Assembly (NCBI GenBank): GCA_051294375.1
Contig: CM119271.1
Coordinates: forward strand, 3,069,061 to 3,133,060
Direction: 5' to 3'
Length of the DNA stretch: 64,000 nucleotides
Source: Paraspadella gotoi
Lineage: Eukaryota > Animalia > Chaetognatha
A program made the translations under genes and the position numbers. The first letter of the stretch is position 1; each line of letters starts with the position of its first letter. Below the pieces are notes generated by a model. The model made no database searches. It had not been told where the DNA came from and was given only the letters and a program-made list of their open reading frames with translations. Below are positions 413-64,000 of the stretch, in pieces.

Positions 413-1325
413 ATGTCGGACGCTGACGCCGGGCGGACCTGTTGGGTCTGCTTCGCCTCCGACGAGGACGCCCCGCGCGAGCAGTGGGTGCGGCCCTGCG
501 GGTGTCGCGGCGCCACCAAGTGGGTCCACCAAAACTGCGTCAATCGATGGATCGACGAGAAACAAAAGGGTAATTCGACGGCGAAAGTCTTTTGTCCTCA
601 GTGCAACAAGGAGTACGCCTTCACATTTCCGAAGATCACCCATCTTGTCCGCGTCCTTGATCTCGTCGAACGCGGCGTCGTCAAATTCTGCCCGTATCTC
701 GCCGGCGTCGTCTTTATCGGCGCCATGTACTGGGGCGCCGTGACCCACGGCGCCATCACTGTCATGCAGGTCCATTTGGGTTTTCTGGGTTTGACGACAG
801 AATTTGTCCTCAATTACACGATGAATTCAGGTGATGGGCAACAGGGAAGGCCTCACGCTAATGGAGGAGAGCGACTCTTTGGTTCTGCTGATCGGGCTCC
901 CCACGATCCCCGTTGGTCTCGTCCTGGCCAAGCTGACCCGTTGGGAGGATTACGTTCTTCAATGGTGGCGCGGATACTTGCGGCCTTTTCTAGCCTCGGC
1001 GTCTTCCTCCTCATCCTTGCCGACCCAACCGGCGCGAATCCCGGCGGATCCCGCGTCGATCGCGGATCCCGTCTCGGCGACGCGCGTCGTCGTCGGCGCC
1101 CTGCTTCTCCCGACCGTCTCCACAGTGTGCGGGCAACTCTTTTTTAAGAGGGAGAGGAACAACTTTAAACGGACCATGCTGGGGGGCGCTACGTTCGTGT
1201 TGATCAAGGGCCTGCTGAAGCTCTACTACAAGCAGCAGCAGTACGAGCGACAGGTGCAGCGACAGGTGTTGGACTACGAGGTGGCTCAGAAGTTGGCCGC
1301 CGCCGCCTCCGATCGCGATCTTTGA
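413..1325 (+). CDS. MARCHF5: E3 ubiquitin ligase MARCH5 (mitochondrial RING-CH); exons 413-769 and 831-1325
   Basis: RING-CH motif CWVCFA...PCGCRGATKWVHQNC...CPQC, hydrophobic segments and C-terminal YYKQQQY. A GT-AG intron at 770-830 joins the two ORFs in frame. Confidence 0.95.
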
Positions 1326-1601
1326 AGGTGGTGGACCAGTGATATGTAGATTTTGGTTTTACCTTTGATTCCGTTTTCTTTCTGAATAAATTTATTTTCG
1401 TACGTCCTTTGTTTCGTATCTTTTATTTAAATATTCTCTTCCAATATTGTGCCAATTTGTAATAATGTATTAAATTGATTCCTTTAGTAATGGACTTGGG
1501 CACATATTAGGACTTGTAAATAAGTTTCAGCTCTATCGATTAACAAACAACAAATTTAAATTATAAAAACAAAAAAAAACAAACAAACAAAAAAAATTAA
1601 C

Positions 1602-4600
1602 ATGAAGATACTTTTTTCTCAACAAAATCCGTCGGAAACTAATCAAGCAATTCCAGCGACTTTCGCCAATTTCGGAAATCAATTAAATTTTTTCAAATTG
1701 CACCAACAACAACAACCGACGTCTCGATCCTCGGAGCGACCTCCAACGAGGCCGCGAGTTTTGATAGAAGATCACACGGATTCCCCGACCGACCTTTCGA
1801 CGACCGTGTCGGCCGAGATTCGGGAGGAGCGATACCAAGTGAAGACGGAAGCCACAATGCCGACAAGCACAGTAGTGGCCGTCCGGCATCAGTCGCCGCC
1901 GCTCGAAGCATCCAAGATATCGTCGTCCACGGCGACGGCAAAGAGCTCGGTTCCTCCCCTACCGCATAAAAAGATCATCATGGGGAAGATCGAGCACGGA
2001 AACGCCGCCGGGGTTAGCGAATCCATGCAGCACGCGCAAACCATGCTGCAGCTGAGTCAGGAGCCGTTGCTGCTGCACCAACGGACGAGGCCGGATTCAT
2101 CCGCCTCGCAACCGGAGCAGAGGAAGGTGGAGAAGGCGCCGCCGGTTGAATACTACATGGAGATCGGGCAATCTTCGCCCGCGCCCCTCGACGTTCGGCC
2201 GAAACTGGGCGAGAACAACTATGAGAGCAGACATTACTTGACGAACAACTTGAACGAAGCGAGCCTGGCAAGCGGGACACCTTCCGCGCAACAATTAAAT
2301 CCTGCTTTGATTCACAGTAGGATTTTTCCTAAGGATGAGCCGATGTCACCAAGGTTTACTATGATTGGTTTTAACGATTGTGGTTTTTAATATTATTAAT
2401 TTATGTTTGATTAATGACCTCAATTTTATAAATGTACCCAGATCGCTCGCCTCATCTCCACTGGCCTCCGGTACAGCTTCTCCCCGCTCTCCCATCAATT
2501 CCGCCCTCGTTGCCAACGAGCTTAGCCAACGGCTGGCCTCAAAAGGCTTGCTGCAGCAACAAATACAACCACAGCATTTTCAGCATCTTTCGCAGCAACA
2601 AGTAGTCATCTCACCCGCCGAAACTTTAGTCATTTCCACCTCGACTTTGGATTCGGACAATTTCATCGTGTCCTCGGCGAATAGGTATGTTTTCCTATAT
2701 TGTTGTATGGGACGAAGGTGTGTTTCTACTATTACTATTATCTACTATTGTATGATATACAACTATAGAAACTCGCCGTAAAATTTTTTGCTTCACTCAG
2801 ATTTTTTTCCCCCGTTTTTTTGACAGTCCAACATCGACAGTTCCTGTCACAACGGAAAGTCCGGACATTCCGCAAACAAAAATACCAGGTGATTAAATTC
2901 GATAATTCAATCGAAATTAGCAACATGTGAACATAAGCGAAGGAAAAAAGTCATTGATTTTTCCCCTCCCACGAAATTTTCACCAACTACAGGAACAACG
3001 GTATACGAAGGAGAGTACGGGTTTCGCATCTCTTTCGCTCCGCAGATGAAGGAGACAAAATCTGCTCAGGTTTTTCACCGAGTTTATTGCCATTTTAATT
3101 AATCTTTATCAGTATTTTGAATAATTCTCCGCAGTGGACCTACTCTCCGATGCTGCACAAGCTTTTCACGCGCATCAACGCCGCCTGTCCCATCCGTTTC
3201 CAATGCGCCTACAAACTTCCGCCATCGGGAACTCTCCTGCGAGCTCTGCCTATTTACATGCAGGTGCGACATTATTGGCACAGCGTACCCCACAAAAATA
3301 GGAGTAGTTTAATCAGAAAAAGAAGACTACCTTATTTTAAAATTTTGTTTCAGCCCGAACACGTTTGCGAGTCTGTGGTACGGTGTCCCGTTCATGCGGC
3401 GATGCCCTTGGATAACGACGCCAATCCATTGCAGGGTATACATTTTATAATGAAGTTAGAATGAAATGAATTTCAGCATTTAACCATTACCCATCTTAAT
3501 GTTCAGGCGGTCGACCGACGAACCACTTGATACGCGCCGATCACCCCCACGCCGACTACAGCGAGTCGGACCCTCACTACGGTCGCCAGTCTGTTTGCGT
3601 CCCGTTCGAAGCACCAGCCGTCGGCACAATCTGGTCCACGGTCCTTTACCGTTTTATGTGCAACTCTTCTTGCGCGGGTAAATTTTGTTCTTGGAAAAAT
3701 ATTTTTTATAACCATCAGCACTACGTTAAATTGCTTCTTTCCTATAAAGGCGGTATGAACCGACGACCGATTCAAACGGTCTTCACTTTGGAAACCCCGA
3801 CCGGAGAAGTCATCGGACGCCAGGTGGTCGAAGTCAGGATTTGCGCTTGTCCCGGCCGCGACAGCAAGGTGAGTTCCCGAACATAGTGGGAAGTTTCCCC
3901 CAGCGAACTCCCGACGGGCCGCCAGGTGAAGAGTAAGATAAACTATGGCAACGGGAGGATAGCCTGTGATACCCGGGGCGCGGGGTATCTCACCAACTGG
4001 CATAGGGGCTGCGGACCCTCAGTGACCGCCTCCTGTCACTGGCATGTTTATACCGGCACCGTCACACTTAAGCCAGAACCGGGATACCCAGGGATTGAAC
4101 CCAGGACGCACGGATGGAATGAGATGATTTAGCCTGCTCAGCCATTGAGACGAGGCTGAGGACGGACAGCAGTGAGGCAGCTTTAAGTCTTGCTGCCACA
4201 AAACCACTTTTTCCTACCGCAGGTCGAAGAGCGTAATCTGTTGAACAAAGGGAACGGAGGTGACATCTCCTCAAAGGCGCACAACACAAAGATGGAACCC
4301 GGTACTGAAATGGTTACTGATCTTTTAAATAATTATGAGATTAACACACTCTTGAAATTCTGACCGCCATCCTTATAGGTTTCATCCTTGACGGTCCGCT
4401 TCCGATGAACTCGGCCACGCTCGTCCACGACGTTTTCCCCACGAGCGGACGCAAGCGGAAACGCGCTCCTCACCACGAAGTTTCGCAACACCATGACGAC
4501 GAAGAGGCGGGGCCGGTTTACAATCACGGTGAGTTTGGGGTTTGGGCGCTTGCCTCCTGCTTGTCGCCTTTTTGGCCAATCGTTTTCATGACTTAAATTA

Positions 4601-4941
4601 TTGATAAACTTTTCTACCCAACACAACAGGAGCAGAAGACCAGCGCGTATTCACGCTGCTGGTTCGCGGACGCGACACCTACGAACTCCTCAAACGCCTC
4701 CGCGATTCCATCGAACTCTCCAAGATGGCCACCTCCGATCAATTGGACAAGCTTCAGGTCCGAGCACTAGCGATTTGTTAATATTTTAATGATCATGATT
4801 TTAAATTAAAGCGTATGAATTCGACAGACGATGGAGGCGGAGATGGAGCAGCAGGTTAACGCCGCTTCGAGTCTCATCTCGTTTATGTCGCAGCCGCCGG
4901 AGAATCATCATAATCATCCGACGGCGCGGGAAGGCAACTGA
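1602..4941 (+). CDS. p53/p63/p73-family transcription factor (multi-exon, no SAM domain); start codon uncertain
   Basis: Spliced DNA-binding domain [54 protein letters not shown], with all four Zn ligands and the DNA-contact Arg residues. NLS RKRKR; oligomerisation domain [24 protein letters not shown]; stop TGA at 4939-4941. Confidence 0.93.
3944..4160 (-). mobile_element. tRNA-derived SINE, family A copy 1 (in a p53-family gene intron)
   Basis: Minus strand has A-box TGGCTGAGCAGG and B-box GGTTCAATCCC (4091-4101). The body is colinear with the copy at 56631-56833. Confidence 0.8.
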
Positions 4942-5726
4942 GAAAAGGGGAGGGGAAGGTTGAGCTCGTATCAAGTTCCGACCGGCTCTTTGTGAGGATC
5001 GAGTCAAAAAAAAAAGAAAAATTTAACCAAAATTATTTGATTTTTAAAAAAATATTAAAACGGCTGAAAAAGAAAAGAATAAAATACAATGAGGTATACA
5101 AATACTTCTGTGTTCATTGAACACTGTTCAAGTCAACTAAGTCAAGTGTCAATCGTGTGTCCACAGCCATTTATAAAAACAATTAAAAAAAAAACCCTTT
5201 AAACTTTTCACGTACCTACCGAGAACTGTCCCCTTTTTGTAATTCTTTGTAATTATGTTTGGTTTTTTTTAAAGGGAAGTCTAGACTAATATCTGGCGCT
5301 AAAGCGTGTTTTTATCAAAACAAGCCTCATGCTCCTATTTGATTAAGGAAAAAAAAACAGCTTTTCAAATTTCCTCAGTTGCCCTTTCCTTTCCTTTCCT
5401 TTTGAAGTAATAAAGCATATATATATTCATCGAAATTTGTTATGCATTTACGTTTCAGTTATCAATTTATATTTTGGTATTACGCATTCAGTCTTCAGAG
5501 AAAATTTGATAAGAAAAACGAAATTTTGAATTTGTTTTTGTTTTGTCTTAAAAGATTTAATTTGGGACTTCAAAGAAGTACATTGTAGTCGTTCTGGTCC
5601 CGCCTTGCGCTTGTCTCTGCGAACTTCTATCTGCTGAAAGAAATTGGTTCGAGCTGCGTCGCAAGGCCAAGGGTCGCATTGATGAGCGCAGCTTAGAGAG
5701 AAAAGTTACCTAAATTGACTCTAAAA

Positions 5727-7816
5727 ATGGCCGCCAAAAGCAAGACCTCGCTGAAGCTCGACAAGCTTCCCACGATGCCAACGGCACGGACTTTTTGTCA
5801 CGCTTTTCGCGTCGGCGACGTCGCCTTCGTCGCCGGCGGCTGCGACGTCGCGGGAAAGGCGCTGGGGGCTTTCGAGAGCCTCGACATTAGGTGAGGAAGA
5901 TTAGAAGTGGGGAGAGGGAAAGAGCGCGAGTCCTAATCGCTATATTTTTGTCGATAATATAGTAAAAAGAAACCAAAGTGGAACCGCCTGACCGACATGC
6001 CGACACGTCGCGCCGGAGTCACTGGTGGCGTCATACAGGACAAAGTGATCGTCATATCCGGCGTCGATGAAACGAAAAAGTCGCACGAGGTCGTCGAGTG
6101 CTACGACGTGGGCGCCAAGTCGTGGTCCAAATTGGACCCCATCAGCGAACCCATGCAGGGCGTGGCGACCTTCGTCAGGTTGACCATGAATGAAATATTG
6201 ATTTATCTTAAGATCGGATCGTTGTTCTACTTTTTTTTCACCCCTTCCAACCAATTTTCTCCCAGAGACTCACGACTCCACGCCCTCGGCGGCATGAAGG
6301 AAAACGGGAACCCTTCCGATGCCTTCCACGCCCTCGATCTCGAGCGCAACAAATGGGCGATGCACGCGCCGCTCAACTCGGCGCGTTACGCCGCCTCCGC
6401 CTTCGTGGTCGACGATTGTGTTTATGCCATGGGAGGCAGGGTGGGGAAACTGCCCTCGGTCGCTTGCGAGGTTGGTTAATGGTGGTTAAGAGATCAAGGG
6501 TGGATCAACGTTTTTATTGAAGTTTATTTTAAAGGGGTTTTAATAATTTCGTAAATTACGATGTTTTTCATACTAATTTTGAGGGGTATTGAAATAGAGG
6601 GAAATAATCGTATATTTCGCAAAGAGTAGAAACTAGAGAATTATTCGCCTAGACAAAATATACCCAGGGGCAAGAGGAGGAGGGAAAAAGAGGAAGAGGA
6701 GAATGGGACGGCAAGCTAAATCCTCCTCTGCTAATTCATATAAAATTGGTACATTCAATATATAATATTATAAATTCATTCAATAACTCCCCTTACTTTA
6801 AACAGGCTATGGTAGTCAGGGCCTACAGCCTATAATAACATAACACCCTGCAGACTTTTAATTAAGACTCTCTCACCCTTCCCCTCGGCCCGACCAGATG
6901 TTTGATTTTCGCGAGAAGCGATGGCAAAATTTAACTGACGCTCCGTCAAAACGTGTGTTCGTAGCCAGCGCAGTGGATCCGGCGTCTCAGAGAATATTCA
7001 TTGTTGGAGGGCTTAGTCATCCCTCCGACGACGGATTCTGCAACACGCTGGAAGCTTACGATATCAGGTTTGGGGGATAGTCGAAATAAATGTCACTAAC
7101 TAATTCATACTAAAATTAACCTATTTACTCTCAAGTCTTTGTAAATCAACGAATTTATCATATTACATTGAGTACATTGTTCATTAGTTTCATTCATATA
7201 AATTGAGACTTGTACTTTTCTAACAATCGCTGCCAGTTTTGAACTTTGACTTTTAAATTTCGATGTTTTCGTTTCTCTCCTAAAAAAATTCGTTATATAA
7301 CATTACACAACATTTTTAATGCCTTTTATTTATTTAACTCAAAACCAGAGCCGCAAAGTGGGAGTCCCTCGCCCCTCTTCCACAGAAAAAGGGCGACATG
7401 GTCTGTCGATTTCTCGACAATCGTCTCTGGGTTTTTGGTGGAATGGGATCTGAGTCTATGGAGGTCCTTCCGCAGGTGCCGTTTGAAGAATATACTTAAA
7501 ATATGTAGAATTGGAATTTCTCTTTGTTAACTATCAAATTAATCTATTATAGTATTGTGTTGACAATATAATTGTTTCTTCTCTAATCATTCTCCAGCTG
7601 TACTCCGAATGCCACGCCTACGAACCGACGAGCGATTCCTGGTCGGAGTCGTTTCGTCTCTCGTCCCCTCGATCAGCGATGGCGGCGATCGCTTTCCCTA
7701 CCGGCGGCGAAGATGCCGGTGACGCCCTCCAGGAGAAACTCTTCATAGTCGGCGGATTGTTGAATGGCGGACCCGCCAACTCCGCAGAGCTCGTTACGAG
7801 CTCGAAAGGTCGATAA
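5727..7816 (+). CDS. Kelch-repeat beta-propeller protein, KLHDC8-like (multi-exon)
   Basis: Successive kelch repeats (MPTAR..VAGGCD, MPTRRAG..ISGVD, ALGGM, YAMGGR, IVGGLS, VFGGMG, IVGGL) with no BTB domain. Exons join in frame through GT-AG introns. Confidence 0.8.
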
Positions 7817-8181
7817 AGGGAGACGGTTCCGACATGTAATCGGGAAGTATTTTTTAATATTTTTTTTATTGTATTCTGCGACCGCTTTCTTGTTTTACTC
7901 GCGACACAAAGGGACTCTTTGGCATTTTTTCAAAGTGGAATTGATTTTATTTAGTCCAAATTGATTTTTATTTTTATTCTAAATTTTGACTTTCTAATCA
8001 TTTTTTTGATCCAAAAAGCGATGTATTTTACTTTTTCTTATCTGCGTGCCTTATTTTGTAATTTTTTTAGGGTTTTACGATAATTTAAAAACAAGAATGC
8101 GTTCCTATCTTCCTTTCACGTGGATAAACGAAGAATAATGTAACTTTTAGCCACATTATTTAAATAAGCGTAAAAAACAAG

Positions 8182-12446
<4,265 letters not shown>

Positions 12447-13458
12447 AAACGATCTCTCTCTCTCTCTCTCTCTCTCTCACATCGTTGTCACGATTCCAAC
12501 TCCATAAATTCGTCACCGCGTTGTCTCTTGACGGTCGTAAATCGCGAAAAAAAACGTTTGTTGTTTCTCTTTTTCGTCGACGTCATTTGTCTTCTGGATG
12601 ACAGTCGCGTGCGGATCGTAAGAAGTTGGATGGACACTGTCCGCCCCCGCGGGATTGGAAAAACCACTGGCGAAAAAAATATTTACGTTTTACGAAACTT
12701 AATACAGTTTAATTTAATGAACAGTAATGTGTCATATGTTGGTTTTTTTTTTTCAACAAAAGAATCGTCGTTTCCTTTCCCTTCCTGCCTTACGTTTCAA
12801 ATGCAGATTCCCTTTTGAATCCCCTTTCCTTCTGTTACTATTCAGTATTCACCCACTCCCCATTTGACCCCCTCCCCTTTCCACCCCACCCAACCCCTCG
12901 TTTTCCCACCCCCTCCCTTTCCCTCACCTCCCTCGACCCCCCCCAGACCCCCCCGATCCATCCTTACTCATCTTTTCCTGAATTCGCAATTTTTTTTCCC
13001 TCTCGATTCCCTTCTTCCCGTGATCACGAGTTTTATTCGCCTCTTGTTTATTATTATTATTAATATTAATATTATTGACTTTTTTCCAATGAACTTTTAT
13101 TTTATCAAAAAAAGGGATTGATCGAGACTCGCGATGCCCCGAAACGACCTCTTGCTTTTTATGCAATGACCTTCCTTCGTCTAAAATCCCATCGAACGAT
13201 AGTCACTTCACGCCTTTGTGTTCCACACACCCTCAGGGGGTTTTGACTTTGAGGGAGGTTCGCGATTTTGCGAAGCGAAAAAAAACAACTGATTCATAAA
13301 AAAAAACTGTCCCAATTTTCAATTCTCATTATCTTCGTATTTCGTCGGACCTCTTAATTGAACCAATCCCCCAACCCTACCGGCCTACCCTTTTCAAACG
13401 AGAATAATCCCACAAACAATACTAACTTGCTCATTGCTCAATAAACTATCGAAAACTC

Positions 13459-16109
<2,651 letters not shown>

Positions 16110-18261
16110 AGAGATTCAAACTGAACCAAAAAAAAAAAGAAGTGTTAAGTTTACCCTGGACAAGGTTTTTCACGTTAAAGTAAATAAAAGTTACAATCAT
16201 TACTCGCTGGTTTGCTTTATATCGTGGAAAATACGTAGGAAATTATAAAAACTCGAATCTGTGCGTTTTTATACGGCAGAAGACAAAAACCTGTCTTTGT
16301 AGCGATTATTGTGCACTTCGTAATTCAGCCATTCACTGACCAATCTTTCACGATTTTATTTGATAAATGTATACTTGTTTTTAATCTTAAATCATAGACG
16401 TCAAACTATTTCTTTTCTTAAAACAGTCTCTTGCGCTAGTACATGTACAGACATGTACTTCCCCCCCCCAATGAATTCGCAGATTATTCATTTCGTCACA
16501 ATTCAAACTGGTATAAATTTTGAACGTTTCTGCTTTATATCTAGATTTCCAGCTTGCGTTTTCTGTATTTTAACAAAGCTGGTTATCAGTGTAACGTCAT
16601 TCTAATCTATTCCTGTATATTCGGAGAATTTTTAATTAATTAATCTTTCAAGTTTATGTACAATATATATTCATTGTTTGTTTAGTAGTTATTTAATTTA
16701 AAAAAAATTAGTGTTTATACTACTCTTTTAAGCCTCTAAATTTCGTGTTGTCAGTAGTGGTACTTAAAAAAAAGAATCAAATTTTTAGGGTGTAAGGTAA
16801 ATTACACAGATGTACTTTTTTCTTATATACTTAAATGATTATTCTTTGTTCATATGTACCTCACTATTTTTTCTAAATTACCATGCTCGTTGATAATATT
16901 AAGTTGGTAATCGTTTGACAGTTGTTGACGACAAAAATATAATATTTGATAAAAGATACTGTCGAATGCTGAATGCTGAATATTTTAATACGTTAAAACT
17001 AATTTGGTAATTCCGAATTTGTTTTCCTCACTTTATTGAAAGAATCAATATTTATTAAATGTATATACTAAAATTTGGTATTATAAGCTAGCAATTTATA
17101 TGTACGAATTTTTTTATCAAAATTAAGCGTTAGAAAGTCACGAAAAAAAAAAAAAGCTTTTAATGTGCATCCTTTATCAAAAACTACTCGTCTGATACGG
17201 TCGTAAAAATCAGGCTACAACGATAAAACCTCAGCATTTTATACCTCATCATTTACAACTTTTTTTTTTAATTTTTCTATGCGTCAATGAATTTAGTCAG
17301 ATGTGGATAAAGTAGCTAGAAAATCGATTGGATTGAACATAATTTTCACAAAATAACGTAGTAAATTTTTAATGATAACGACAAATATAAGGTTTCTGTT
17401 CTGTAGTTTATTGCACCAAAGCAAAGTTGTAAACGTTGGTTTAAAAAAAAAATTATGGTAAGATATTAGACGGGACTGAGATATCGCTCAACATTTAATT
17501 TCTAAATGATCAGATATGTTGTAGTCAAGGTTTATCTGTCATTCTACATAAACGACATTTGGGTTGTAGAAAGTGAGGATTCTGTTAAGTGTTTTTTTTT
17601 TTAGGTTTGCGTTGCTTCCTCTTTCTAATTTGTGAGAAATATAAAACTATGGTCACTTATTCACTGCCAATATTTTTATTAACTTCTAACTTATGGCAAC
17701 GAATCATTTATCGAATATGTAGATATGTAAATTTGTGTGGCGGTATGTATCAAATTTTACATGCATGAATTTGCAATGTTAAATGTATGCATTCTGCAGT
17801 TTATTCTGCAATCCGTATTTCCTCGTTACATGAAGGATGTGTTGATATTATACAACATTCATCCGATACTTTTTTGTGAATGAAAATTATTTTTATTGCA
17901 ATGCTCTCGATTATTTTTCCCTTTTCTTAAAAAAAAGTAATTTCTATAAATATTCCAAGAAAAAATTGTAAATTTTATTTGCAAACCATCTGTGTTAAGC
18001 CGACGCCCTGTAACCTGAATATTGTAAAATGCAATTTTGCTGTTTATAAACTTTTCCTTTAACGATATCGCAATTCTTTTTGCATCGGCCGCTGTCATAA
18101 AAAAAAAAACGCAATTCGACCAAGAAAACCCGGAGTTTTTCAAATTTGTCCTCCAGGCATTAAAACCTTGTTTTGCTGTAATGTTAGTGTAAAAAAAAAA
18201 TCATGCTTCCGATTTTTCCGTTAGTCTATAAAAATTACGATTATTTTTTCGAACTCGAAAA

Positions 18262-18902
18262 ATGGAAATGGAATCGATGAGCCGCTACGTTTCTCCGGTC
18301 AATCCGGCCATTTATCCTCACCTGACGGTAAACGCGAGATTGTTGAAAGATAAAAATATTAAGATACTGAAGAGACAGTAATTATTGTTATATGTTAATG
18401 ACAGAACCGTTCAATGTAAGCAGTCCCTGAGCTTCGGATCAGGCTGTAACACCGTGTTACAGGCGGGTTAAGCGCCCCGTCTCTCTTAACTGCTAGGCGA
18501 CCACCGGGCTAGAACCCCGGACCTTTGGGTTGGGAGGCGAATGACTTGCCTCCGGCACCAATGGCCGCGGTTCGTGGATTTTAGTCCACCATAATACTGT
18601 CAGCTCGATCTTTCCTCTGATTATCAAAACCCAAATTTGGATTCTTTTGCAAAACAGATCGTTTTGTTGGGCATCGGGATTTTCTTCATGGCTTGGTTTT
18701 TCGTTTATGAGGTCACATCAACTAAGTTTAACCGGGATTTACCAAAGGTAATCGGAAGAAGTACTCATAGGCTCTAGGACTGAATGCGTGTGAATAGTAT
18801 TTTTTGCTCCTTTTTCAGGAATTGCTCATGTCGGCGGTAGCTTCGGTCTTCATGGGTTTCGGAGTCTTGTTCCTTCTCCTGTGGGTCGGAATTTATGTAT
18901 GA
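18262..18902 (+). CDS. TMEM258: TMEM258 oligosaccharyltransferase subunit (3 small exons, absent from the ORF track)
   Basis: Manual translation: [22 protein letters not shown] / [30 protein letters not shown] / [27 protein letters not shown]. Confidence 0.93.
18410..18568 (-). mobile_element. tRNA-derived SINE or pseudo-tRNA (Gly-CCC-like head), family B, in TMEM258 intron 1
   Basis: Minus strand 18568-18497 (72 nt) has acceptor stem GCGGCCA/TGGTCGC, T-like arm CCGGG-GTTCTAG-CCCGG and loop CTCCCAA. The anticodon stem is mismatched, and a hairpin-rich GC body follows. Confidence 0.6.
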
Positions 18903-19173
18903 CGTTTGGATCGTCTGGCTTCAGAAAAAATATTACCTTACGTTTGTTATTAAAATGAAATTCCATCTAAAAACTAGTCTTAAATTTTAACAGTCATGAA
19001 AGGTCAACTGACGAATCTGTTTTCTCTCTGTTATGTATCTAGATGTATTGCTTCCTCAAAGTTTTAAATATTGTTTTCCTTTTGTTTAATTAAAGGTTTA
19101 AGAATACTTTCATTTTTTACGTTCCTCGTATTTTTTTTTTCGATACTTTTTTAAGATTACACAAAAGATAAAA

Positions 19174-21907
19174 ATGACGTTTCTCGGAACGGCTTCGAGA
19201 CATTTTCTCCGTCCCTCTACGACAGTCCCCCGCGCGGCTACACTTTTCAAACATCTCCCCAACGATGGAGAAATATCGAGAGTCCAAATCGCCCGTAACT
19301 TTCCCGGGTCTCGATCGCATATTCTCGGTCCCTCGCCCATCCTTCCTCCCCTTATCCCTCTCAGCCAGAGTCGACCCTTCCGCGTCACTCCCGCCCGCGC
19401 CATCCCCATGCCCGCCCTTCTATTAATCAAAAACGCTCTCAAAATCGGGACAATTTTCGTGGGCCGATTCTTCCGCGGTTGGTACCGCCGAAAGTCTAAC
19501 GAGGAGAAGCGGGAGTTCAAGAGGCGAGTTTGGAGTCATCGTTCCAAGCTGTGGTGGTCCGCGGTGGCGCTGGGCAGTGCAGTTATTGCTTGGTTCGCAA
19601 CGCATTTGGAGAGGACCCCGATGACCGGCAGGTTGAGGTGAGAAAGCTAGGAGTTTTTTATGTCCTTTTAGTCTTCCTTAATGTACGTATACTTAATTTT
19701 TAGTTTTCTTTCAAAATTCATTCATTTTTCAACCTCCCCCCAATTTGATTTATATATCAGGTGGGTGGCGTTGACGAGAAAACAGGTAAACGAGTTGTCT
19801 CAGCTTGAGCTCTCCCAACTCTGTCAGCTCCATGGTCCGAATTTGGTGTCCGAGGACACGCGCCTTTACCAAAACATCAAACAAATCATCGACAACCTCA
19901 TTCAGGGCAATAGGTTCGTATAAAAAGTTTGGTATAAAAGAATTGATAACTTTTCTAAGAAGCCCGAATCGTACTGGTCAGGGATATTTCGGTCTTCAAC
20001 GATTTGAAATGGAAGCTTCACGTTGTGGACCGAAAGGACATCCAGAACGCTTTAGTTTTATCGTCAGGGGACATCTTTGTCTTCACTGGACTGTTGCAGG
20101 CGAGAAATTCTAGAGGGAAAATAATATTAAGGATAAAAATTATGAATCTATTTTTTTTTTCCTTATTCTTTCACCTCGGTTTTTAGTTGCGTTTTAAGTC
20201 ACTTTTCGGTCGGTCGGTAAGTCTGTCCGTCGGGCTGTCCCACTTACGTTAAAAATGCATATAATTCGCCTATTGCTGATTGTTCATTTGTTAAGACAGA
20301 AAAAACCTCAAATCTAAGGGACTGCTAGCGCCGACTTCAGGAAATCCTAAACTATAAAGAATAAAAGACGGAATTTTGATGCAGTGCATGTCATAAATAC
20401 ACGAGCGAAAAAAGTTTTTTTAATCATGTCATGTCATATCATATGATCAAAAAGAAAAAAAATAAAGTTAAAATAGTCATGCGGCGCAACACCTTGGAAT
20501 TACCGTTCTTAGTTCTTCTTGACAGACGTTAGAGAACGACGACGAGATCGCCTCTATTCTCGGTCACGAGATGGCGCATCGTGTTTTGGGTCACGATCTG
20601 GAGAAAGCGTCTCGCGCCCACATCCTCGATTGTGTCTTCATCGTCCTCGCCGGCGTCGTCTGGTTTCTCGCCGGCTCCGATCTCTTGTCCTTTATCTCCC
20701 AGAATATTAGGTCTGTGTGGTTTGGATAAAATTAATCGCATACTTTTCAATCCTGGCTTTATTGTTTAGAGAGGCCGTTTGATGAGTAAATTGCAATGCT
20801 GATTGTTGTCAATTCCAAACTTCGTTTCTCTTAAACAGTGAAAAAATTCTTCGCGTGATATTGGAATTACCTTACGGACGGGAACTGGAAAAAGAAGCAG
20901 ATGTAGTGGGACTTGAATTGTCCGCAAAAGCTTGCTACGACGTCAGGTAGTATAATTTTTCAAGAAGTATTTTTTTTTACTTCTTTGGCTTTGTCCTAAT
21001 CAAAACTACCCTTATTCTTAAAATGTTGTAATAATAATCATAATCATATTAGGAGGTGATCACTTGACTCACGTAAAAAAAACATATAAGAAAAGTTTTT
21101 TGGTAGAGTGCTTTCCCTTTTAAATATTTATAAAAAAGTAAAATGTAAATAGGATTAATAGACAGACCGACCGATAGATCGAAAATTGTCTTATGAAATT
21201 TTATTGAGAATACTCGTATCCCAACTAAAAACCTCATCGTCAACTCCCAGATCGAGCTCAAACGTTTGGACAACAATGTTCCTGAGGCAAAAAATCGAGG
21301 GAAACATCGGGGCCGATTCTCCGGTGACCACTTATTTTTCCACACATCCCTCGGACTTGGAAAGAGCGAGTAAGTTCTTAAGATCGAGACGTTTGCGAAA
21401 TCCATCTGCTATGAGCTTTTCTCTCTTCAGACGCCCTGGACGCGGAGATACCCTCCGCCCTCCACAAACGAAAGGCTTGTAACTGCCCTCCCCTTCCCCA
21501 CCTGGATCCCCGTCGCCCTCTGAAGTTCCTCAAAACTTTTCTCGACACGCTTGACGAGGAGGAGATGGCCTCCCTGCGGAGGGCCTCGTCGGAGAATCGG
21601 CTCAAATCGGACTTGGAGGATCTCATCACGAAAAAACGCTGGGAGAAAGTGAGAGAAAGACGCGCGAACAAATCGAAATGGGTTTCTTATCTTTCGTTAT
21701 TTTCAGATGGAAGAGGATCACCGAAAAGAATTAGATGCGGTAAAGACGCGGATAAAAAAAGCGGAAGTTTTGGAGGAGCGTACGAAGGAAGCGGGATCTT
21801 TGGAGAAAGTAGAGAAAAGCTCATCTCCAAATAAAACTACCAAATCAAATGAATTGGACGATGAAATCAGACCAAACTCCTCAGAAAAGTCAAAGGTTTT
21901 GGCTTAA
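19174..21907 (+). CDS. OMA1: Mitochondrial metalloprotease OMA1 (peptidase M48)
   Basis: Arg-rich presequence, HLERTPMTGRLR, NALVLSSGDIFVFTGLL, zinc motif GHEMAH, LPYGRELEKEADVVG and YFSTHPS. Confidence 0.92.
20181..20520. mobile_element. Putative non-autonomous Helentron/DINE-1-like element in an OMA1 intron
   Basis: Starts TTTTAGTTGCG, contains a GGTC/GTCC microsatellite (cggtcggtcgg..gtccgtcgg) and has an inverted CGCAAC near the 3' end. It accounts for an unusually long intron. Confidence 0.4.
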
Positions 21908-22069: not shown

Positions 22070-24437
22070 ATGTCGGCGATCGAGAGGTCGAAGCCTTTAA
22101 CCGTCCAAACTTCTCTCTCTGACGCCGCCATGTCCAACGTGAGTCCGTGCCTTTCTCGTTCACGCCTCCGCAACCCGGAGCAAGAATATCAACGCCACGC
22201 CTACCTCACGACGATGTGCGGCGTTCCGCGTTGTTTTCGATCCCACTTTCACCGCAACGGAGCATTTTGCTCGAGCAGCGGTAGATTCGTGGAAGGGGCG
22301 GCCGCGCGGTGTTTTTGCGGCGAGGATCACTTTCACTCGGCTTTGACTCGGGAAGTCTTGAAGAAAGCCTTCAACATTGAGGACGAGGGTGAGATAGGCT
22401 AGTTTGTTTGTTTTTCGTTTTTTTTTTCAGAATATCGGGGGGTTGTACAAATATGGTAATGGAGTCGAATTTTACTCGAGCTCCTCCCCAGGTTTCCCTC
22501 CGTCCCCTCGCTCACGCACGGAACGAGACTCGGGTTTGTCCTCTTCCAGTCCCGATATCTTTGCGGATCGAAGATCTTCGGGAACGGCGAGTCCCGACCC
22601 GGAAAGTGTTTTGCCGACCCCCACGAACTTTTCGACGATTCGGTTTTCTTCGACGTCGTTTTCCGAATTCGCTGTTAAAGAGGCTCCTCGAAATTTTAGT
22701 CCAGAAAGCCACCCGATGCTCGATAAATCCACTCTCTCATCGCGAAAATCTTCTATGTCCCCCGAAGACAAACACGCATTCATTTCCGAGGCTCGACCTC
22801 AAGGTCCGACTCGTCCGCGTGCTTTAGAGAGAACCATCCTCGACGGCGGAAGGCGGGCGACCGACAAAAACAATACTAACGCCGTTGGAAATGGTAAAGT
22901 CGTCGAGCCTAAGTTGCGAAAAACTGGACACGCTCATTCTCCCCCGAACCCGGCCGACAATTATCATTTAACTTCTAGACATTGCGCTGTCCATAAGACC
23001 GAATATGAACGTAAGATTTCCAACTGTGAGGGCGATTGCTCGACACCTCCCATCGTGCAAATGAACGATAAATGTGAACCGAAACGCAGTAGTACATCCG
23101 ACGGGCATTTAGATTATTACTACGAGAAGCGAGAGACGGCCGAAGATCGTATGAAACGAAAAATTTCCTGCAGTTCTTTCCGTCGGAACGGGGAGAATCC
23201 GCATGATTTTCGGTCCGCCGCTCGCGTTCGATCAGGTTGTGAGGTAGTACCGCGATCCATGACCCCGGCGGCGCCATCACCGCCTCCGCTGTCGCCTCCG
23301 CGCGCTAAAGAAACCATCGACGTTAAGATGCAAAGGTTCTTGTCTCGTACTTCAGATATCATTGATGCTCAAAAAGTGGGCGCGGGGATCAAAGTTGAAA
23401 AATTGTCTTCCACGGACGACAACAACAACAACGTCCCCAGTTCCGAAGAGGTTTTCCGCAGTCGTGTCGCCGATTTGGTCGACGCCATGGCCCGCGTCGA
23501 AATTCGAGTCCCGACCGCGGAGTCTATCAGGGATGAGTCCGGCAAAGACTTGGACGGAGCGGACGACTTGGCGCGCTCGTCGAAGTCTCAAGCGATCTCC
23601 AGAGAAGACTGGTCGAGCGATCCCCTTTTATCAAAAGTGACGAGTACGGAAGATGAGGATAAAAATCGCAAGCGGACACAATTTTCACCACAGCAATCGA
23701 CCGTTATTGAATCTTCCAATGCTCTTTCTCAAGAAAAAGAGAAAAGTTTAAAGAAAGATGCTCTATATCCAAATTTGTCAACGCCTCAACTCTCTCGACA
23801 CACCCCTTCACTTCCTCCGCAATTTTTGGCGCCCCAATCGAAGGTCATCGCCAAAGTGGATACTTCAATCATGAAACCATTAGAGGCTTTTCCTAAACCG
23901 AAATCGTGGTGTTCGAAGGAAAAGACCAAAAATCGCGAGCAGTCATCGCCGCAAATTCCGCCACATCACTCTATTTTTTCTCGGTCGCTGTCGGCTCCAA
24001 AGCAAGCGACCAAAGTCCCAAAATCTAACGGGCCAATCGTCTCGCAATCACAAGCTCTTCGAGCGGAGGTCGAGGCTGAAAATCGGAAGCAGTCATCCGC
24101 CAAAGTTCGATCAAAACCTTCGTCGCAACCTTTGTCGAATATTCCGCCGCCTTCACAACCGCAATCGCCGCTCAAAATCTCGCCACCCCGGGAAGAGTTA
24201 CAATCCACACCGCCCTCCATTAGACTCCAGATTTTGGACAAACGCATTCTTCGCGTCGTTAACGTTCCGATGGCTTGGCGCGAGAAATTATACCATTACG
24301 TAAACACGCTCGATTACCACATGGCAAAACATTTGAATGATGGCGACTCCATTGGGGTTGAATTGATTTTTGTTGAACCATATCAGGCGACCAGGGCCCG
24401 CGACAGGTTCGACTTGAGCAAAGTGAGAGTCGATTGA
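22070..24437 (+). CDS. Orphan gene: Cys/His-rich N-terminal ORF plus long Ser/Pro-rich ORF ending in a possible divergent RRM; frame junction problematic
   Basis: 110-aa and 677-aa ORFs with coding-like composition, separated by a 42-nt GT-AG intron (22389-22430). AATAAA at 24521. Confidence 0.65.
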
Positions 24438-28024: not shown

Positions 28025-28633
28025 TCCACCCCGCCAACGGGGTCAGCAACTATTTTTACATTCCGATACGGAAGCATCGGAACGAATTGACGGCTACTCG
28101 TCTCTGTGATAATTGATGAAACCGTCTTTTCGTTCTTTTCAAAATCAACTATGTACGTATGTACTAAAAATCCAGAAACAAAATAAACTCAAAAAGCGTT
28201 CTTTCAGTTTATCCCATTTTAGCATTCACTTCCCCTCGTAAATGGATTGTACTCATAAATAGTTAATAATCGTGCTTCTTTTTTTCTATCACCTTCATGA
28301 TACGATTTATCATGGTCTTTTTTTTTTATAACTCATTAATATTCATCATCTATTATTTTTAACCATCTACTTAGATTAATTCATCTCTTTTTGTAACGAA
28401 AAACCAGTTTGTGTGTAAACTCAATTCATCTCTTTTTCCAGTTTCTAGTCAACGAAATTACATTTCACGAATCGTAATTTGCTAATCAACCTTGACTTGG
28501 AATAAAATGCAATTAACTCGTTTTGTAAGTTCTTGATCCTGGCGACATTCTCGCAATAAGACCGTTTCGATCGCGGATTCGTTGAATGCAGAAGAAAAAA
28601 CCAAACGACTTCCCCCGACGTTTCGCTAATTTT

Positions 28634-35060: not shown

Positions 35061-35168
35061 TTTGAGATGAGAAAAGTTTTCTTTGTTTTCACATCGAAAT
35101 TTTTAATGTCGGTGATTTTTCATTAAAAATTTTGTTGTGAAAATAAAGAAAACTTTTCTCATCTCAAA
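35061..35168. repeat. Long inverted repeat (about 48-bp arms), MITE-like or foldback
   Basis: tttgagatgagaaaagttttctttgttttcacatcgaaatttttaatg pairs with cattaaaaattttgttgtgaaaataaagaaaacttttctcatctcaaa, with few mismatches. Confidence 0.85.
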
Positions 35169-39100: not shown

Positions 39101-40667
39101 TTTACGATTTGAGTTTGTTTATAAGCCAGGGGAAGATGATGGTTAATGTGGATGATTTTGGTTTAATGTTTTCATAATTCTTGCAAAAAAAAAGGTTTGT
39201 TTTTGACTAATTTACCAAGCGAATAAATTCTACTATGAAATTTTAATGTCGCCCAAACTCCTTCATAGGATCATTTGGCCTCGTATTACATGTACACTTG
39301 CGACGCGGTCAAGGGAAAGCTGGAAGGGTTCGCCATCGACGTCGATTCTCCCGAATGGAAGGCGAAGAGAGTGTGGAATGTAAAGATCCACCCGCGTTTG
39401 GGGGCGATCACTCGCGTGGTGGGGAGACCCCCGGGCGAACAAACGCACTCTCAAGGAAGAGTCTTGGCCGATCGAAGCGTCATGTACAAGTGAGCCTGTC
39501 AATTTTTTCTCTAAAACTTTTTCGGGTTAATTTATTAATTAATTAATTGATTTTAATTTAGCCGACCTGAGTTAAAGGGGGTTTAGGGGTGGTTTAGGGT
39601 TAAAAGGGTTTAAGGTTTGGGTAATTACGTAATATTTTTTTAAATTTATTTAAAAAATTTAAATAAATATTTTTAAGATGTTTTTCAAAAGTCGCCCGGT
39701 CGGCGAAAGTAAAATTTAGCCACTTTTTCTTCTTTCCCCAGATACCTCAACCCCAACCTCGTCGCCGTCGTGACCGAGGGCGAAGACGACTCGGTCAATT
39801 GCGAGGGCACGCCGGCCCTCCAGTGTTTCCGCGGTCAGATTTCTGTCCTCCTCATTGACGTTATCACCGGCCACATAGTGTTCAGCACTGTGCACAAGAA
39901 GTGTCGCGGACCCGTAAACATCGTCCACTCGGAAAACTGGCTTGTCTACACTTACTGGAACGAGCGATCACGCCGCAACGAGATCGCCTCGATCGAACTT
40001 TACGAGGGAAAAACGCAGTCGAACACGACCATCTTCTCGTCGCTGGATCTGCCGCTCGTCACGCCCATGGTTGAGCGCCAGTCTTTCATCTTTCCCGGAC
40101 ACGTCGACGCGATGGGAGTGTCGATGACGGAAAAGGGCATTGCCAACAAGGTGGCGATGGGAGGAGAAGCTTTTTTTTTTCATATGAATTATAATTTTAC
40201 AATTAATGCGAACAAGTTGGGCGATTCTTGTATAATTATACCAAATTACGTTCCACTTTCAGGACATTCTTCTTTCTCTGGCCACCGGCGGCCTTCTCGA
40301 ACTCCCTCGTCTTTTCCTTGACCCCCGTCGCCCGGTGGAGCCCCGACCGGAAGACCGCGAGGAGGGCCTCATACCATACGCCCCTGAGTTGCCCATCCCG
40401 CCGATTAGCATCGTCTCGTATAATCAAACGATTCACCGGGCGAGGGGCATCGCCTCCGCCCCTGCTGGGCTCGAGTCTACCTCTCTCGTGCTCGTCCACG
40501 GCATGGACCTTTTCTTTACGAGGATTTACCCTTCGAAGATGTTCGATCTGCTCAAGGATGACTTTGATTACTTTTTCATTTCCTCGGTGCTCTTCGGACT
40601 CGTGGCAGCCTCGTTTCTTTTCCAGCAGCTAGCGGCGAACAAGACTGTACGACGGGCGTGGCGATGA
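36142..40667 (+). CDS. EMC1: ER membrane protein complex subunit 1
   Basis: Signal peptide then ALFEDQAGKWDWRQSYVG, WIREEALA, RDEFGLRKIIV, HSQGRVLADRSVMYKYLNPN, VHSENWLVY, LESTSLV and FDLLKDDFDY plus a C-terminal TM. Confidence 0.97.
37032..37124 (+). ncRNA. Minimal hammerhead ribozyme motif inside an inverted repeat (Penelope-like relic), in an EMC1 intron
   Basis: CTGATGA (37069-37075), stem II GACTC/GAGTT, and GAAACATGTC (37093-37102) with palindromic ACATGT and a GUC site. The flanks are inverted repeats. Confidence 0.6.
39551..39714. mobile_element. MITE-like element with 17-bp imperfect TIRs in an EMC1 intron
   Basis: ttttaatttagccgacc (39551-39567) matches the reverse complement of ggtcggcgaaagtaaaa (39698-39714) at 15/17. 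The interior has degenerate TTTAGGG-like repeats. Confidence 0.5.
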
Positions 40668-41361: not shown

Positions 41362-44300
41362 ATGAATCGTGGTTACGGTCAACGCAACAACAGCGGGGGC
41401 GCCGGCCTTGGCGGCGGCGGCCTTGGCGGCGGCGGCCTTAACTCCTGGAAAGGCGCAGCCGGCGGTGGATACGACTCTGGTCACTATGGCGGGGCGAGTG
41501 GCGCTGGCGGTGGATCTAGCGGCGGCAGCAGCAGCATAGGGCTCGGCTTCGGACATTCGTCTTATGGTGGCTCCGCTGGAGCTGCTGGCCAATCCCGTGG
41601 AAACTATGGTGGCGTGACGTCTGGGGCCAGCGGCGGCTACGGCGGTCAATCTTCCCTCGGTGGCGGACTCGGCAGCCAAGGAAGTGGAATTGGCGGCGGC
41701 ATCGGTGGGTCTCAGGGTGGCTCCCACGCCGGGCCTCATGGCGGTTCTCATGCTGGGCCCCACGGTGGTTCCCACGCCGGGACTCACGGTGGTTCCCACT
41801 CTGGTTCGCACGGCACATCTCGCGGAAGCTCCCAGGGCGGGTCACACAGCGGTTCTATGGTTCCTCCATCGGCGCCTCATATTCACACTGGGCCCGCGAA
41901 ATCGCACGGAGGTCCGCAAAGCGCTTCTCACAGCCCTCTCGGAAGCACAGGGCCTATGGGGTACGGTGGAGGCCGTTATCCTCCCGCCTCCTCCACCTCG
42001 GGCGGTGAAAGTTGGGGTGCGGCGCCTTCTCGTCAACAATTCGGTTCTGGAGCAGCGGCGGCATCGAGCTCTCGTTACGGCGGGTCAGCTTCGTTAACTG
42101 GAGGCGTCACTGGCGGTTCCATCGGCAGCGGCGCTAGCGCTATCGGCGTCGGCAACGCTATGGGTGGCGGCGCTGGAGCTCTCGTTGGTAGCGGCGGCGC
42201 CTTGGGCGGTGGTAGTTCCATGGGCTCCAGCGGCTCCGCCATAGGTGGATCCGGTGGTCGCTATGATGCCTCAAAGTCGCAGAACGGCAGCGACGGCATC
42301 TACTACCAAGGTCGACGCATCGACGGGTTCGGTCAGCCCACGTCGTCCGCGGGTCGCGGCTCCAGCACCGGGGCTGGCTCATCTGGTAGCGGCTCTTACG
42401 GCGCCCAGTCTTCCATGCGCGGCGACGCCGGCGCCAAGCCAATGGATGATTCCCGTCGTCGTCTCGACAAGCAGCGGGACGAAGAGGCGAAATTGCACGA
42501 TCGAAGGGAGAAGGAGCGACGGGAGAAAGAAGAGATGAGAAAGAAAAAGGATGAGGAAGAGAAGATGAAGCTCATGGTCGAATTGAAGAAAAAGGAAGAG
42601 GCGGAGCGTCGTCGCGAGCTCGACGTCAAACGCAAGATGGAGGAGCTTAAGCGGCGCGAACAGGCTCTCGCCCAGCAGGAGCGAGATCTAGAGATGAAGC
42701 GCAATAGAGAGCTCGAGATGAAACGTCGAGAGGAGCGGGAACGGGAGGCTTACTCGCAATGGCGGGATGAAGAGGAGCGCAGACGACAGGAGGAGGCCGC
42801 CCGAGTTCAGATGCGCGAGGAGGAGGTGCGCCAGCGGGAGATGGAGGAGATGCGTCGCGAGGAGATGCGACGAGCGGAGATGGAAGAAATGCGTAGGGTC
42901 GAAGAGCAGCGACGTATGGAGATGATGCATCAACAACAACAACAGCAGCAGCAGCAACAGCAGAGGATGATGGCCAGGGGCAGTTTGTTGGGCGGGCCGC
43001 CCATCGGGCCGCCCCCGACGGCTGGAATGGGGGCGCTGAACGCGCTGAGTCAGCATCTGTTGGCGCAAGCGCACGGCGGTCCCGGCATCGGCGTCTCGAG
43101 CTTTTCCGGGGCTTCGCGGGGTCCTGCGAGCGGGAGCAGAGATCGCGCACTAAAGCGGGATCGCGGCCGCGACTCCAGGCGATCGCCCGTCGCTTCTAAG
43201 AGGCCGAAGTCCAACGCGGATCGTCGCAGCCGCGAGCGTCACGGTCGAGACGATCGACGCTCCGGCAGCAGGAGGCGCGACGACAGGGGCCGCGGCGGCA
43301 GCGGCAGGGCCAACTCCAGGAAGAAGGAATCGGCTGAGAAGGAAGAGGACGACGACGGTGGACTCGTCGTTCTCGACGAAGTCAACGACGACGACGAGAC
43401 GAGCAAGAAATCCGAAAAGGCCGAGGGGAAACGCGGGGAAAAGAGGGACAGGGAGAGCGAGAAGAAAAAGAGAGATGCCGAGCGTGCCGCGCGTCATAAG
43501 AGGTTGGAGGAAGAGAGAAAGGAGAGGGACAGGGCGGACGACGTGCGAAGGGTGCTTTACGACATGGTGCGCAAGGTTGCGCACAAGAGCCGTTTCCCCG
43601 ACGAGGAGGTGCAGACGGAAGATCTGGTCGGGATCGAGCCGTTGGCCAACTTGTTGGACACGTTCAGGAAGGAGGAGGCTGTGAGGAGGGAGATGAGGAG
43701 GAAGGAAAGGGAGGAGAGAAAGAAGAAAGAGGTGGAGGAGAAGAAGAGGAAGGAGGCCAAGAGGAAGAAGGAGGAGGAAGAGAGAAAAGCGAAGGAGGCG
43801 GAGCAGAAGAAGAAGGAAGAAAGCGAGAGGGAGGAAAGGGAAAAGAAAAGAAAGGAAGAGAGGGAAGCTAAGGCTAAGAGAGAGAAGGAAGCGAAAGCTA
43901 AAGAAGAGAAGGAATCCAAACCCAAAGAAAAAGAAGCTAAGGTAAAAGAAGAGAAAGAAGAGAAGGATGAGGAAAAAGAAGCAAAGGTTGAGGAAGGTAA
44001 GGTGAAGATAGAGTCGATGGAAATCGAGAAGAAAGAACAAAACTCCACCACAGAAACGCAAAATGGCAAAGGATCCGAAGGCGAGGGAACAAAGGAATCC
44101 GACGACGATTGCGTCGTCATAGAGTCGCCCTCTCCGTCGAAGAACGCCGAAAAACCGGCGCCAACCGAATCCAAGCCGGTCTCGACGCCGAAAAAGTCGC
44201 CGGGGCGTGCCAATCGCGGGGGGCCGCGCGGGCGCGCTCGCGGCCGATGCTCCTCCAGGGGCGGAAGAAAAGCCACGCCGGCTCCGACGCCGACAGAGAC

Positions 44301-62692: not shown

Positions 62693-63232
62693 ACGAATTT
62701 TTTGTTATGTAGTTTTGTTTTTCTTGTTGTTCCATCGCGCGGATTTCGAAAGGAGATGTCGTGCGGCCCTCGGATCCAGTTAATTTGGGTGAGGAGCATG
62801 AAAAGCCCGACCTTGGTCGGGTTGATATAATTTGTTTCGGCGGAGTCGAGACCGAAGCAGTTATCATTTTTGTTGCCGTTGTTTTTGTTGCTGCCATAGT
62901 TTGTTGTTTTTAAAATGCCAATGATTTATTTACAAATAATAAAGTGATTTAATACAATTTTACTAGATCACGGCCGACCAGAAGCCCGGATCGTTTTGAA
63001 TCGCCAACTTCATCTTCGTTCCTGTTTGTCATTTTAACATTCAGACTATTTCGAACGATTCCAAATGTGATATTAATTATTTCCACAATTTTACGTATTA
63101 TCTCGATCACCCAAAAGTTTATACAAGTCATATTTATGTGTGTAGTAATTTTATAGCCCAAAGATTTTACTGCAACAACGAAAATAAAGAACTCTAGATC
63201 GCGGCTAGAAAAAAAAATCGAATCGAGCGAAA

Positions 63233-64000
63233 ATGGCTCTCAACGGGTCGCACCACGATACTGGCGGACTCGTCGTTTTTCTCGGCGAGAACATCCTTTG
63301 CTATCACGACGGTGTTGAATTGGACTTTGCCAAAACCGACGTAGCAACCATGGCGAAGGTGAGTGGGCCCGTTGGGGGGTATTTGCTTCTTAAAACGTTT
63401 CTTCTACTTCCTTTTTTCTGCGCCTGTTTGTGTCACCTACTTTCACTTCACTCTCCCCTCCTCCTCCCAGGGCACAAAAAAGGGTCGCGCTTACTTAACG
63501 ACGCATCGCGTGATTTTCGTGACCAAGGACACCCGCGACGCCCTAAAGTCCTTCTCTATGGGCTTCTGCTCCATGAAGAACGTCGAGTTGGAGCAGCCCA
63601 TCTTCGGCGCTAACTACCTGAAGGGCCTCGTCTCCGCCGAACCCGGCGGCAAGTGGACGGGCTGCGCCGAGTTTAAGATACGGTTCAACAAGGGAGGCTG
63701 CATAGAGTTCGGAACGGCGATGCTGAAGGTTTGTTCGTCACGATGGAACCGGTCACGAAACATGAGCGCGAAAGCCCCTTCTCATCGCGAAAATTTACAT
63801 ATCCCAGGCGGCGTCTATGGCCTCCCGATTCACCGGGCCCCAGTTCGCGCCCCCGCCCTACTCTTACGAGAACCAGAACGTGCAACCCGCGCAACCGTCG
63901 ATGTACGTTCCTCCACCGGGAGCGTACGGATGGGTCATGCACGACGAGTATCTTTATCCCCCGCCGACCTCCGGTGAGATTATAACGTACATTATAACAT
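63233..64000 (+). CDS. WBP2: WW domain-binding protein 2 (GRAM domain plus PPxY), truncated by the window end
   Basis: MALNGSH, KGRAYLTTHRVIF, LEQPIFGANYLKG, FNKGGCIEFG and a downstream PPPY motif. Confidence 0.92.

Follow-up and report, generated by a model that had tools for sequence, protein, structure and literature searches.

Organisation of the locus

The window, the whole stretch of 64,000 nucleotides (nt) analysed here, comes from the chaetognath Paraspadella gotoi (assembly GCA_051294375.1, contig CM119271.1, positions 3,069,061 to 3,133,060). It contains 22 mostly unrelated genes, the majority of them housekeeping genes, between position 413 and its end, and all of them (22/22) are located on the plus strand. 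Operons of animals (nematodes, tunicates and chaetognaths) usually hold a few genes, and very long directional clusters are a kinetoplastid trait. The 22-gene same-strand run is a real feature, confirmed by the results described below. The genes are the following, with the strand and the basis of each assignment.

413-1325, plus: RING-variant E3 ligase (MARCH5-like); Pfam RINGv, RNA contig 1
1602-4941, plus: p53-family transcription factor; Pfam P53 and P53_tetramer, 11 RNA joints
5727-7816, plus: Kelch-repeat protein (KLHDC8-like); Pfam Kelch_1, 4 RNA joints
8182-12446, plus: LSD1/KDM1A-like demethylase; Pfam Amino_oxidase above the cut-off, SWIRM below it
13459-16109, plus: TGF-beta/activin type I receptor kinase; Pfam Activin_recp and Pkinase, stop checked
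18262-18902, plus: TMEM258/Ost5, with a repeat within intron 1; Pfam Ost5
19174-21907, plus: M48 peptidase (OMA1-like), 3' exons inferred; Pfam Peptidase_M48
22070-24437, plus: gene without Pfam family, a first exon of 109 amino acids (aa) followed by a 679-aa open frame; open reading frame (ORF)
25055-28024, plus: MSL2; Pfam zf-RING_10 and MSL2-CXC
28586-29976, plus: MsrB methionine sulfoxide reductase, start codon uncertain; Pfam SelR
32392-33561, plus: hnRNP K, intronless coding region; homologue search and Pfam scan
36142-40667, plus: EMC1, head of a tight chain of at least 11 genes; Pfam EMC1 N and C domains, homologue search
41362-44376, plus: 1004-aa protein, Gly-rich and Arg/Glu-rich, one open frame, no Pfam family; ORF
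44797-47518, plus: two-RRM protein (hnRNP A/B-like); Pfam RRM_1
47992-49845, plus: PDCD2; Pfam PDCD2_C
50009-51568, plus: short-chain dehydrogenase (RDH-like), copy a; Pfam adh_short
51959-53591, plus: short-chain dehydrogenase (RDH-like), copy b, tandem duplicate; Pfam scan, 70% identity to copy a
54255-54741, plus: ATP synthase subunit g; Pfam ATP-synt_G
54970-57106, plus: DUF1295 membrane protein; Pfam DUF1295
57450-60862, plus: C2H2 zinc-finger protein; Pfam zf-C2H2
61470-62692, plus: GT2 glycosyltransferase (DPM1-like); Pfam Glycos_transf_2
63233-64000, plus: GRAM-domain protein (WBP2-like), continuing past the window end; Pfam GRAM

Homologue searches are the source of the names hnRNP K and EMC1 only. 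The labels MARCH5, KLHDC8, LSD1/KDM1A, OMA1, hnRNP A/B, DPM1 and WBP2 are presumptive and follow from domain content.

The plus-strand Pfam scan comprised 139 chosen frames and 13 further exons, and at least one exon reached the curated cut-off in 20 of the 22 genes. The two genes without a Pfam family are long plus-strand ORFs, one with a second exon of 679 aa and the other of 1004 aa. None of 375 minus-strand ORFs reached the cut-off; these were all 314 stop-to-stop ORFs of at least 50 aa and all 61 of 30-49 aa found in 12 spacers, which comprise the region 5' of the first gene and the 11 gaps that measure at least 540 nt. Three minus-strand ORFs gave sub-threshold matches (E 0.002-0.008), and a small orphan gene without a Pfam domain may be located on this strand somewhere in the window. 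ARAGORN tRNA and Rfam searches of the window gave no match. An earlier reading of the same DNA, made from the letters alone and here called the sequence-only reading, had placed every gene on the plus strand, and the 20 Pfam assignments together with the 375 minus-strand ORFs below the cut-off bear this out. Tandem duplicates are found at only one of the 21 junctions, between the two dehydrogenases.

Gaps between genes

The 21 stop-to-ATG gaps have a median of 540 nt; three are below 250 nt, ten are 500 nt or shorter and 16 are below 700 nt. Ten gaps given in the sequence-only reading (276, 365, 271, 162, 420, 473, 163, 390, 228 and 343 nt) were exact on recomputing, and its statement that all gaps from EMC1 to WBP2 are below 700 nt agrees with a largest value of 694 nt. 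Only three gaps are longer than 2 kb: one of 2152 nt located 3' of the TGF-beta receptor gene, and the two around hnRNP K.

29977-32391, plus: 2415-nt gap, candidate boundary or promoter region, suggested by gap length, skew and GC patches
33562-36141, plus: 2580-nt gap, candidate boundary or promoter region, suggested by gap length and skew

Both gaps around hnRNP K have an excess of T over A just past the stop codon, measured in 250-nt bins, which is lost in the middle of the gap, and GC-rich patches 5' of the next gene. The skew of the first gap fades past approximately 30530, with GC patches at 31188-32390, and that of the second fades at approximately 34560-35800. Loss of skew combined with GC patches is a weak compositional sign of possible unit boundaries in these two gaps. 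Promoters would fit into the gaps of 2.4-2.6 kb on either side of hnRNP K, and the run is therefore unlikely to be one unit; a single 64-kb transcript is unsupported. The window is likely to consist of two chains, one of 10 genes and one of at least 11, with hnRNP K between them, and it is plausible from the gap lengths that EMC1 to WBP2 make up one predicted unit.

Operons in P. gotoi have been defined with a 250-bp rule, which counts the distance between transcript models. The rule applies with certainty at three of the 21 junctions by the stop-to-ATG gap and at one more by RNA (152 nt), and one further junction is bridged by RNA. The two gaps around hnRNP K are likely to fail it, and the remaining junctions hinge on the ends of the untranslated regions (UTRs).

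The gap between hnRNP K and EMC1 also contains a 48-nt inverted repeat (35061-35168) that is 94% complementary and resembles a miniature inverted-repeat transposable element, and a smaller inverted repeat is found in an EMC1 intron (37044-37103).

RNA evidence

RNA contigs from run X9 were available for region 1-20000 and are taken as RNA because their GT..AG joints behave accordingly. The chain from EMC1 to WBP2 lies outside the RNA-covered region, and the segment 53620-56600, which has no real X9 cover, counts neither way. All 15 joints shown for region 1-20000 (15 of 53) are GT..AG on the plus strand. Two spans bear on the junctions between genes.

4942-5726, plus: p53-kelch spacer of 785 nt, crossed unbroken by an RNA contig (contig piece 4825-5887)
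13115-18109, plus: RNA span of the TGF-beta type I receptor (RNA contig, record 3)

The first span belongs to one spliced RNA contig of 4062 nt that joins p53 exons to kelch exons through the entire spacer. The receptor contig starts at 13115, directly 3' of a genomic AG, and its 16 leading letters are unaligned; they could be the remnant of a leader. RNA also fills the 2152-nt gap 3' of the receptor gene (16000-18109) and stops 152 nt 5' of the TMEM258 ATG. The end of the contig coincides with a run of A encoded in the genome, possibly a site of internal priming.

Within the 110 nt 5' of the 22 ATGs, acceptor-like sites were weakly enriched, with scores slightly higher than in shuffled sequences (p=0.013), mainly because of MARCH5. 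A few near-matches to the ends of published leaders were found in the window, all within AT-rich DNA, and were judged to be due to chance. AATAAA was given no weight as a signal, since it is found just as often on the minus strand.

The RNA contig of the MARCH5-like gene departs from the genome at 1272, within the coding region, and has 30 foreign letters at its end. There is no canonical splice site on either strand at this point, and a chimera or an allelic difference could account for the break.

Expected frequency of long one-strand runs

The sequence-only reading gave a probability of about 1e-6 for the run. The value is correct for random orientation but overstates the surprise, as it corresponds to approximately 0.01 runs in a genome of 22,000 genes. 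For P. gotoi, 5,061 genes are reported to lie in 2,151 candidate operons (PMC12460157), and if pairs within operons share strand these published counts imply a same-strand adjacency of 0.566. The expected number of such runs per genome is then 0.06-0.1 at the published operon rate, and about one at an adjacency of 0.65. The run is thus unusual, but the figure of 1e-6 greatly exaggerates this, and extremes are what a scan selects.

A second locus is available in a 158-kb bacterial artificial chromosome (BAC) from Spadella cephaloptera, whose genes are listed in Table S5 of PMC2481426. Mobile elements aside, the table gives an orientation for 14 named genes; every one of them is on the plus strand, and together they extend over approximately 120 kb. 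The count leaves out one unidentified gene without stated orientation. The one-strand run persists across gaps of more than 10 kb. The nine rows counted as mobile, among them a tyrosine recombinase and entries that carry merged 'transposon' labels, are divided between the strands, five plus and four minus (Fisher p=0.014 against the host genes). At an adjacency of 0.566 the pattern of the host genes has p of about 0.0006-0.001. The authors of the BAC study remark that several of the genes share orientation and could be operonic (PMC2481426).

Interpretation of the run

The explanation considered best, with a probability of roughly 55%, is that the window has few promoters and two long polycistronic chains, one of 10 and one of at least 11 genes, located on either side of hnRNP K and cut into separate messengers by 3' cleavage and spliced leader (SL) trans-splicing. 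Each chain would be transcribed from an upstream promoter, probably with some internal promoters. Cleavage and polyadenylation would form the 3' end of each messenger, and the messenger of the following gene would receive its cap from a leader joined at an AG a short distance 5' of the ATG. A gene without a promoter of its own would survive only in sense orientation behind existing transcription, so that one-way runs would lengthen; a similar argument has been made for the operons of nematodes (PMC2776167) and for Oikopleura (PMC11067885). In chaetognaths about half of the genes are reported to be trans-spliced and operons are present (PMC12460157; PMC2481426). The mechanism is already known in the phylum and the length of the run is what is new.

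The polycistronic reading rests on orientation, on gap lengths, on RNA continuity over one spacer and on the near-closure of another. It would require that most neighbouring genes are co-transcribed, that they receive a leader and that the two long gaps contain promoters. The sequence-only reading had offered a chain of long operons or a strand-biased organisation of the genome. Both have gained support, from the RNA that crosses or nearly closes two spacers and from the 14 co-oriented Spadella genes, with polycistronic transcription itself as yet putative. The same reading had proposed a search for a non-genomic leader, and the outcome was one contig with the unaligned letters after an AG and no match to published chaetognath leaders in the six loose contig ends shown (of 97).

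The lack of a match in these ends weighs against the polycistronic reading, as do several other observations. The p53-kelch contig has a computed end at approximately 7916, about 100 nt 3' of the kelch stop and short of LSD1. A contig that spans two genes is not proof of one transcript and is equally well explained by abutting or overlapping UTRs. The 5' end of the kelch gene lies inside the unbroken contig with no leader branch there, and the 16 unaligned letters of the receptor contig could be a tiny upstream exon that is cis-spliced. The acceptor-like sites before the ATGs are not significantly enriched relative to 3' regions (p=0.12) or to the reverse strand (p=0.11), and AATAAA occurs 32 times on the plus and 42 times on the minus strand of the spacers. 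The run includes p53 and a TGF-beta receptor, and P. gotoi operons are reported to be depleted of developmental and signalling genes (PMC12460157). The Spadella BAC was picked while its authors were mining clusters of the same orientation, and the table contains only genes with database hits.

The run can also be regarded as the extreme tail of an operon-rich genome, in which operons of two to four genes and single trans-spliced genes with promoters of their own are co-oriented by chance and picked up by a large scan. Just three of the 21 gaps are below 250 nt and the RNA depth of p53/kelch and LSD1 differs approximately tenfold, as contig means, which are a poor measure; both fit such a mixture, as does the burst of tandem duplication reported in P. 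gotoi (PMC12460157), and the adjacency of 0.65 would yield about one run of this kind per genome. Against this stand the lower adjacency implied by the published operon counts, with its 0.06-0.1 runs per genome, the Spadella pattern at p of about 0.001 for the same adjacency and the single tandem duplicate among the junctions, and a chance origin appears rather unlikely. At the other extreme, the window and much of the genome could be organised as in kinetoplastids, with very long units, rare start regions and control that is nearly all post-transcriptional. The 22 genes here and the 14 Spadella host genes, which stay on one strand over approximately 120 kb and across the gaps of more than 10 kb, point in this direction and give a naive lower bound on adjacency of 0.91 when selection is ignored. 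P. gotoi is reported to have about half of its genes trans-spliced, 18% in operons and open chromatin near start sites (PMC12460157), and the two long gaps lose their T-over-A skew as boundaries would, though the bins make this a weak argument; an organisation of this type is considered improbable.

A compact arrangement of monocistronic genes, each with a short promoter in or beside the UTR of the gene upstream and without a leader, would explain the tandem order as avoidance of transcriptional collisions. The median gap of 540 nt has space for a short UTR and a core promoter, and the missing leader in the contig ends and the weak acceptor enrichment agree with it. The gaps of 162, 163 and 228 nt would have to contain both UTRs, and in a recent survey same-strand runs contain about two genes on average in animals with one promoter per gene (bioRxiv 10.64898/2026.07.29.740908), which makes this arrangement slightly more improbable still. 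The run would be an artefact if minus-strand genes had been missed or the sequence misassembled, and orphan genes without Pfam domains do escape the scan and the two long gaps do contain GC-rich patches. With no minus-strand ORF of 375 at the cut-off, with all RNA joints shown on the plus strand and with the p53-kelch junction crossed by RNA from an independent run, this explanation is very improbable.

Comparison with known systems

The window resembles the SL operons described in chaetognaths (P. gotoi, PMC12460157; RPS14-PCNA of Spadella, PMC2481426) in that unrelated housekeeping genes are located head-to-tail with short spacers, and the neighbours on the Spadella BAC are likewise on one strand (PMC2481426). 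The longest chaetognath operon reported, under the 250-bp rule, has nine genes (PMC12460157), whereas the candidate chains inside the 22-gene run have 10 and at least 11. Leader addition has been shown in the published operons, while the window is known here from sequence and contigs. The operons of Oikopleura dioica and Caenorhabditis elegans are described as head-to-tail, functionally loose, biased towards housekeeping genes and resolved by trans-splicing (PMC11067885, PMC2776167, PMC7986045), as is proposed here, but the predicted intercistronic distances of operons of this type are shorter, with medians of approximately 30-110 nt in most SLOPPR runs. The transcription units of C. elegans are reported to be oriented nearly at random (bioRxiv 10.64898/2026.07.29.740908) and would not give 22-gene runs.

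Long one-strand runs of unrelated genes are found in trypanosomatids, with a reported mean of about 30 genes per directon (bioRxiv 10.64898/2026.07.29.740908), and long one-strand runs also in Symbiodinium, where half of the genes are reported in unidirectional blocks of at least nine (PMC8110479). In these organisms the layout is genome-wide and measured, whereas the present data are one window, with candidate internal boundaries, and one BAC table. Trypanosomatid genes are described as largely intronless, while those of the window are intron-rich, with 15 cis-introns shown by RNA; the many cis-introns set the window genes apart from a kinetoplastid genome in which genes are largely intronless and all trans-spliced. 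The mean same-strand run of metazoans is about two genes long according to a survey of 525 genomes whose main text makes no mention of chaetognaths (bioRxiv 10.64898/2026.07.29.740908).

The main text of the P. gotoi genome paper contains neither 'orientation' nor 'same strand' and three of its supplements do not contain 'strand'; the operon spreadsheet, outside the scope here, may bear on the claim about length (PMC12460157). The literature searched, subscription papers being outside the scope, contained no description of such long directional arrays in chaetognaths or any other animal group.

The 22-gene run and the 14-gene run of Spadella suggest that trans-splicing let the phylum drift toward long directional arrays. 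The broader proposal, that chaetognaths keep their housekeeping genes, throughout the genome, in long one-strand runs in which 10-20 or more unrelated genes with many introns are read as a few long polycistrons, is tentative and on balance doubtful. If it holds, chaetognaths would be the first animals with a directional genome like that of dinoflagellates or kinetoplastids, and this would have been overlooked because operons are called by the 250-bp rule and strand statistics are unreported. A general pattern would offer an animal model of genome change through the loss of promoters and the growth of operons, and would place regulatory genes such as p53 and the TGF-beta receptor under post-transcriptional control. 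Should the run be a tail event confined to this locus, it would count as an ordinary case of known operons, if somewhat longer than usual.

Base composition and features of individual genes

The ratio of observed to expected CpG in the window is 0.88-1.6 and CpG is thus not depleted, which fits the loss of gene-body methylation reported for P. gotoi (PMC12460157).

The closest database records of hnRNP K are 76-86% identical in the alignment, with molluscs next. A tree made with a quick method from 49 of the 120 listed matches and the window protein placed the latter in a clade of 20 rows with a long stem (100 in the Shimodaira-Hasegawa-like approximate likelihood ratio test), outside the included molluscs, annelid, arthropods and fishes. 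The relatives within this clade form approximately three paralogue-like groups, and the coding region in the window is intronless amid intron-rich genes. The hnRNP K alignment gave 597 pattern matches in a scan of metagenomes, none of which was confirmed as a relative. EMC1 is 79% identical to its closest records and at most 58% identical to records of named organisms. No record of a named chaetognath was among the matches of hnRNP K or EMC1.

Two repeat families are found in introns. The repeat in intron 1 of TMEM258 (18368-18568) draws very many RNA contigs, with a bin depth of approximately 20,000, and by eye it looks like a tRNA-derived short interspersed nuclear element, with ARAGORN and Rfam negative. 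The second family is represented in a p53 intron (3944-4136) and in a DUF1295 intron (56690-56791), with 75% identity over 107 nt. In addition, the 3' end of the dehydrogenase region (53555-53607) has a partial third copy at 53896-53948, located 5' of ATP synthase g and 79% identical over 53 nt.

The p53-family gene has a long N-terminal part rich in Gln, Ser and Pro, and by eye no obvious SAM domain past the tetramerisation motif. The first exon of the gene at 22070-24437 encodes a Cys/His-rich motif, and a protein atlas search with that exon gave no usable match. If the last intron of the two-RRM gene (46767-47518) is retained, an in-frame stop is encountered at 47222, by eye a possible alternative C-terminus.

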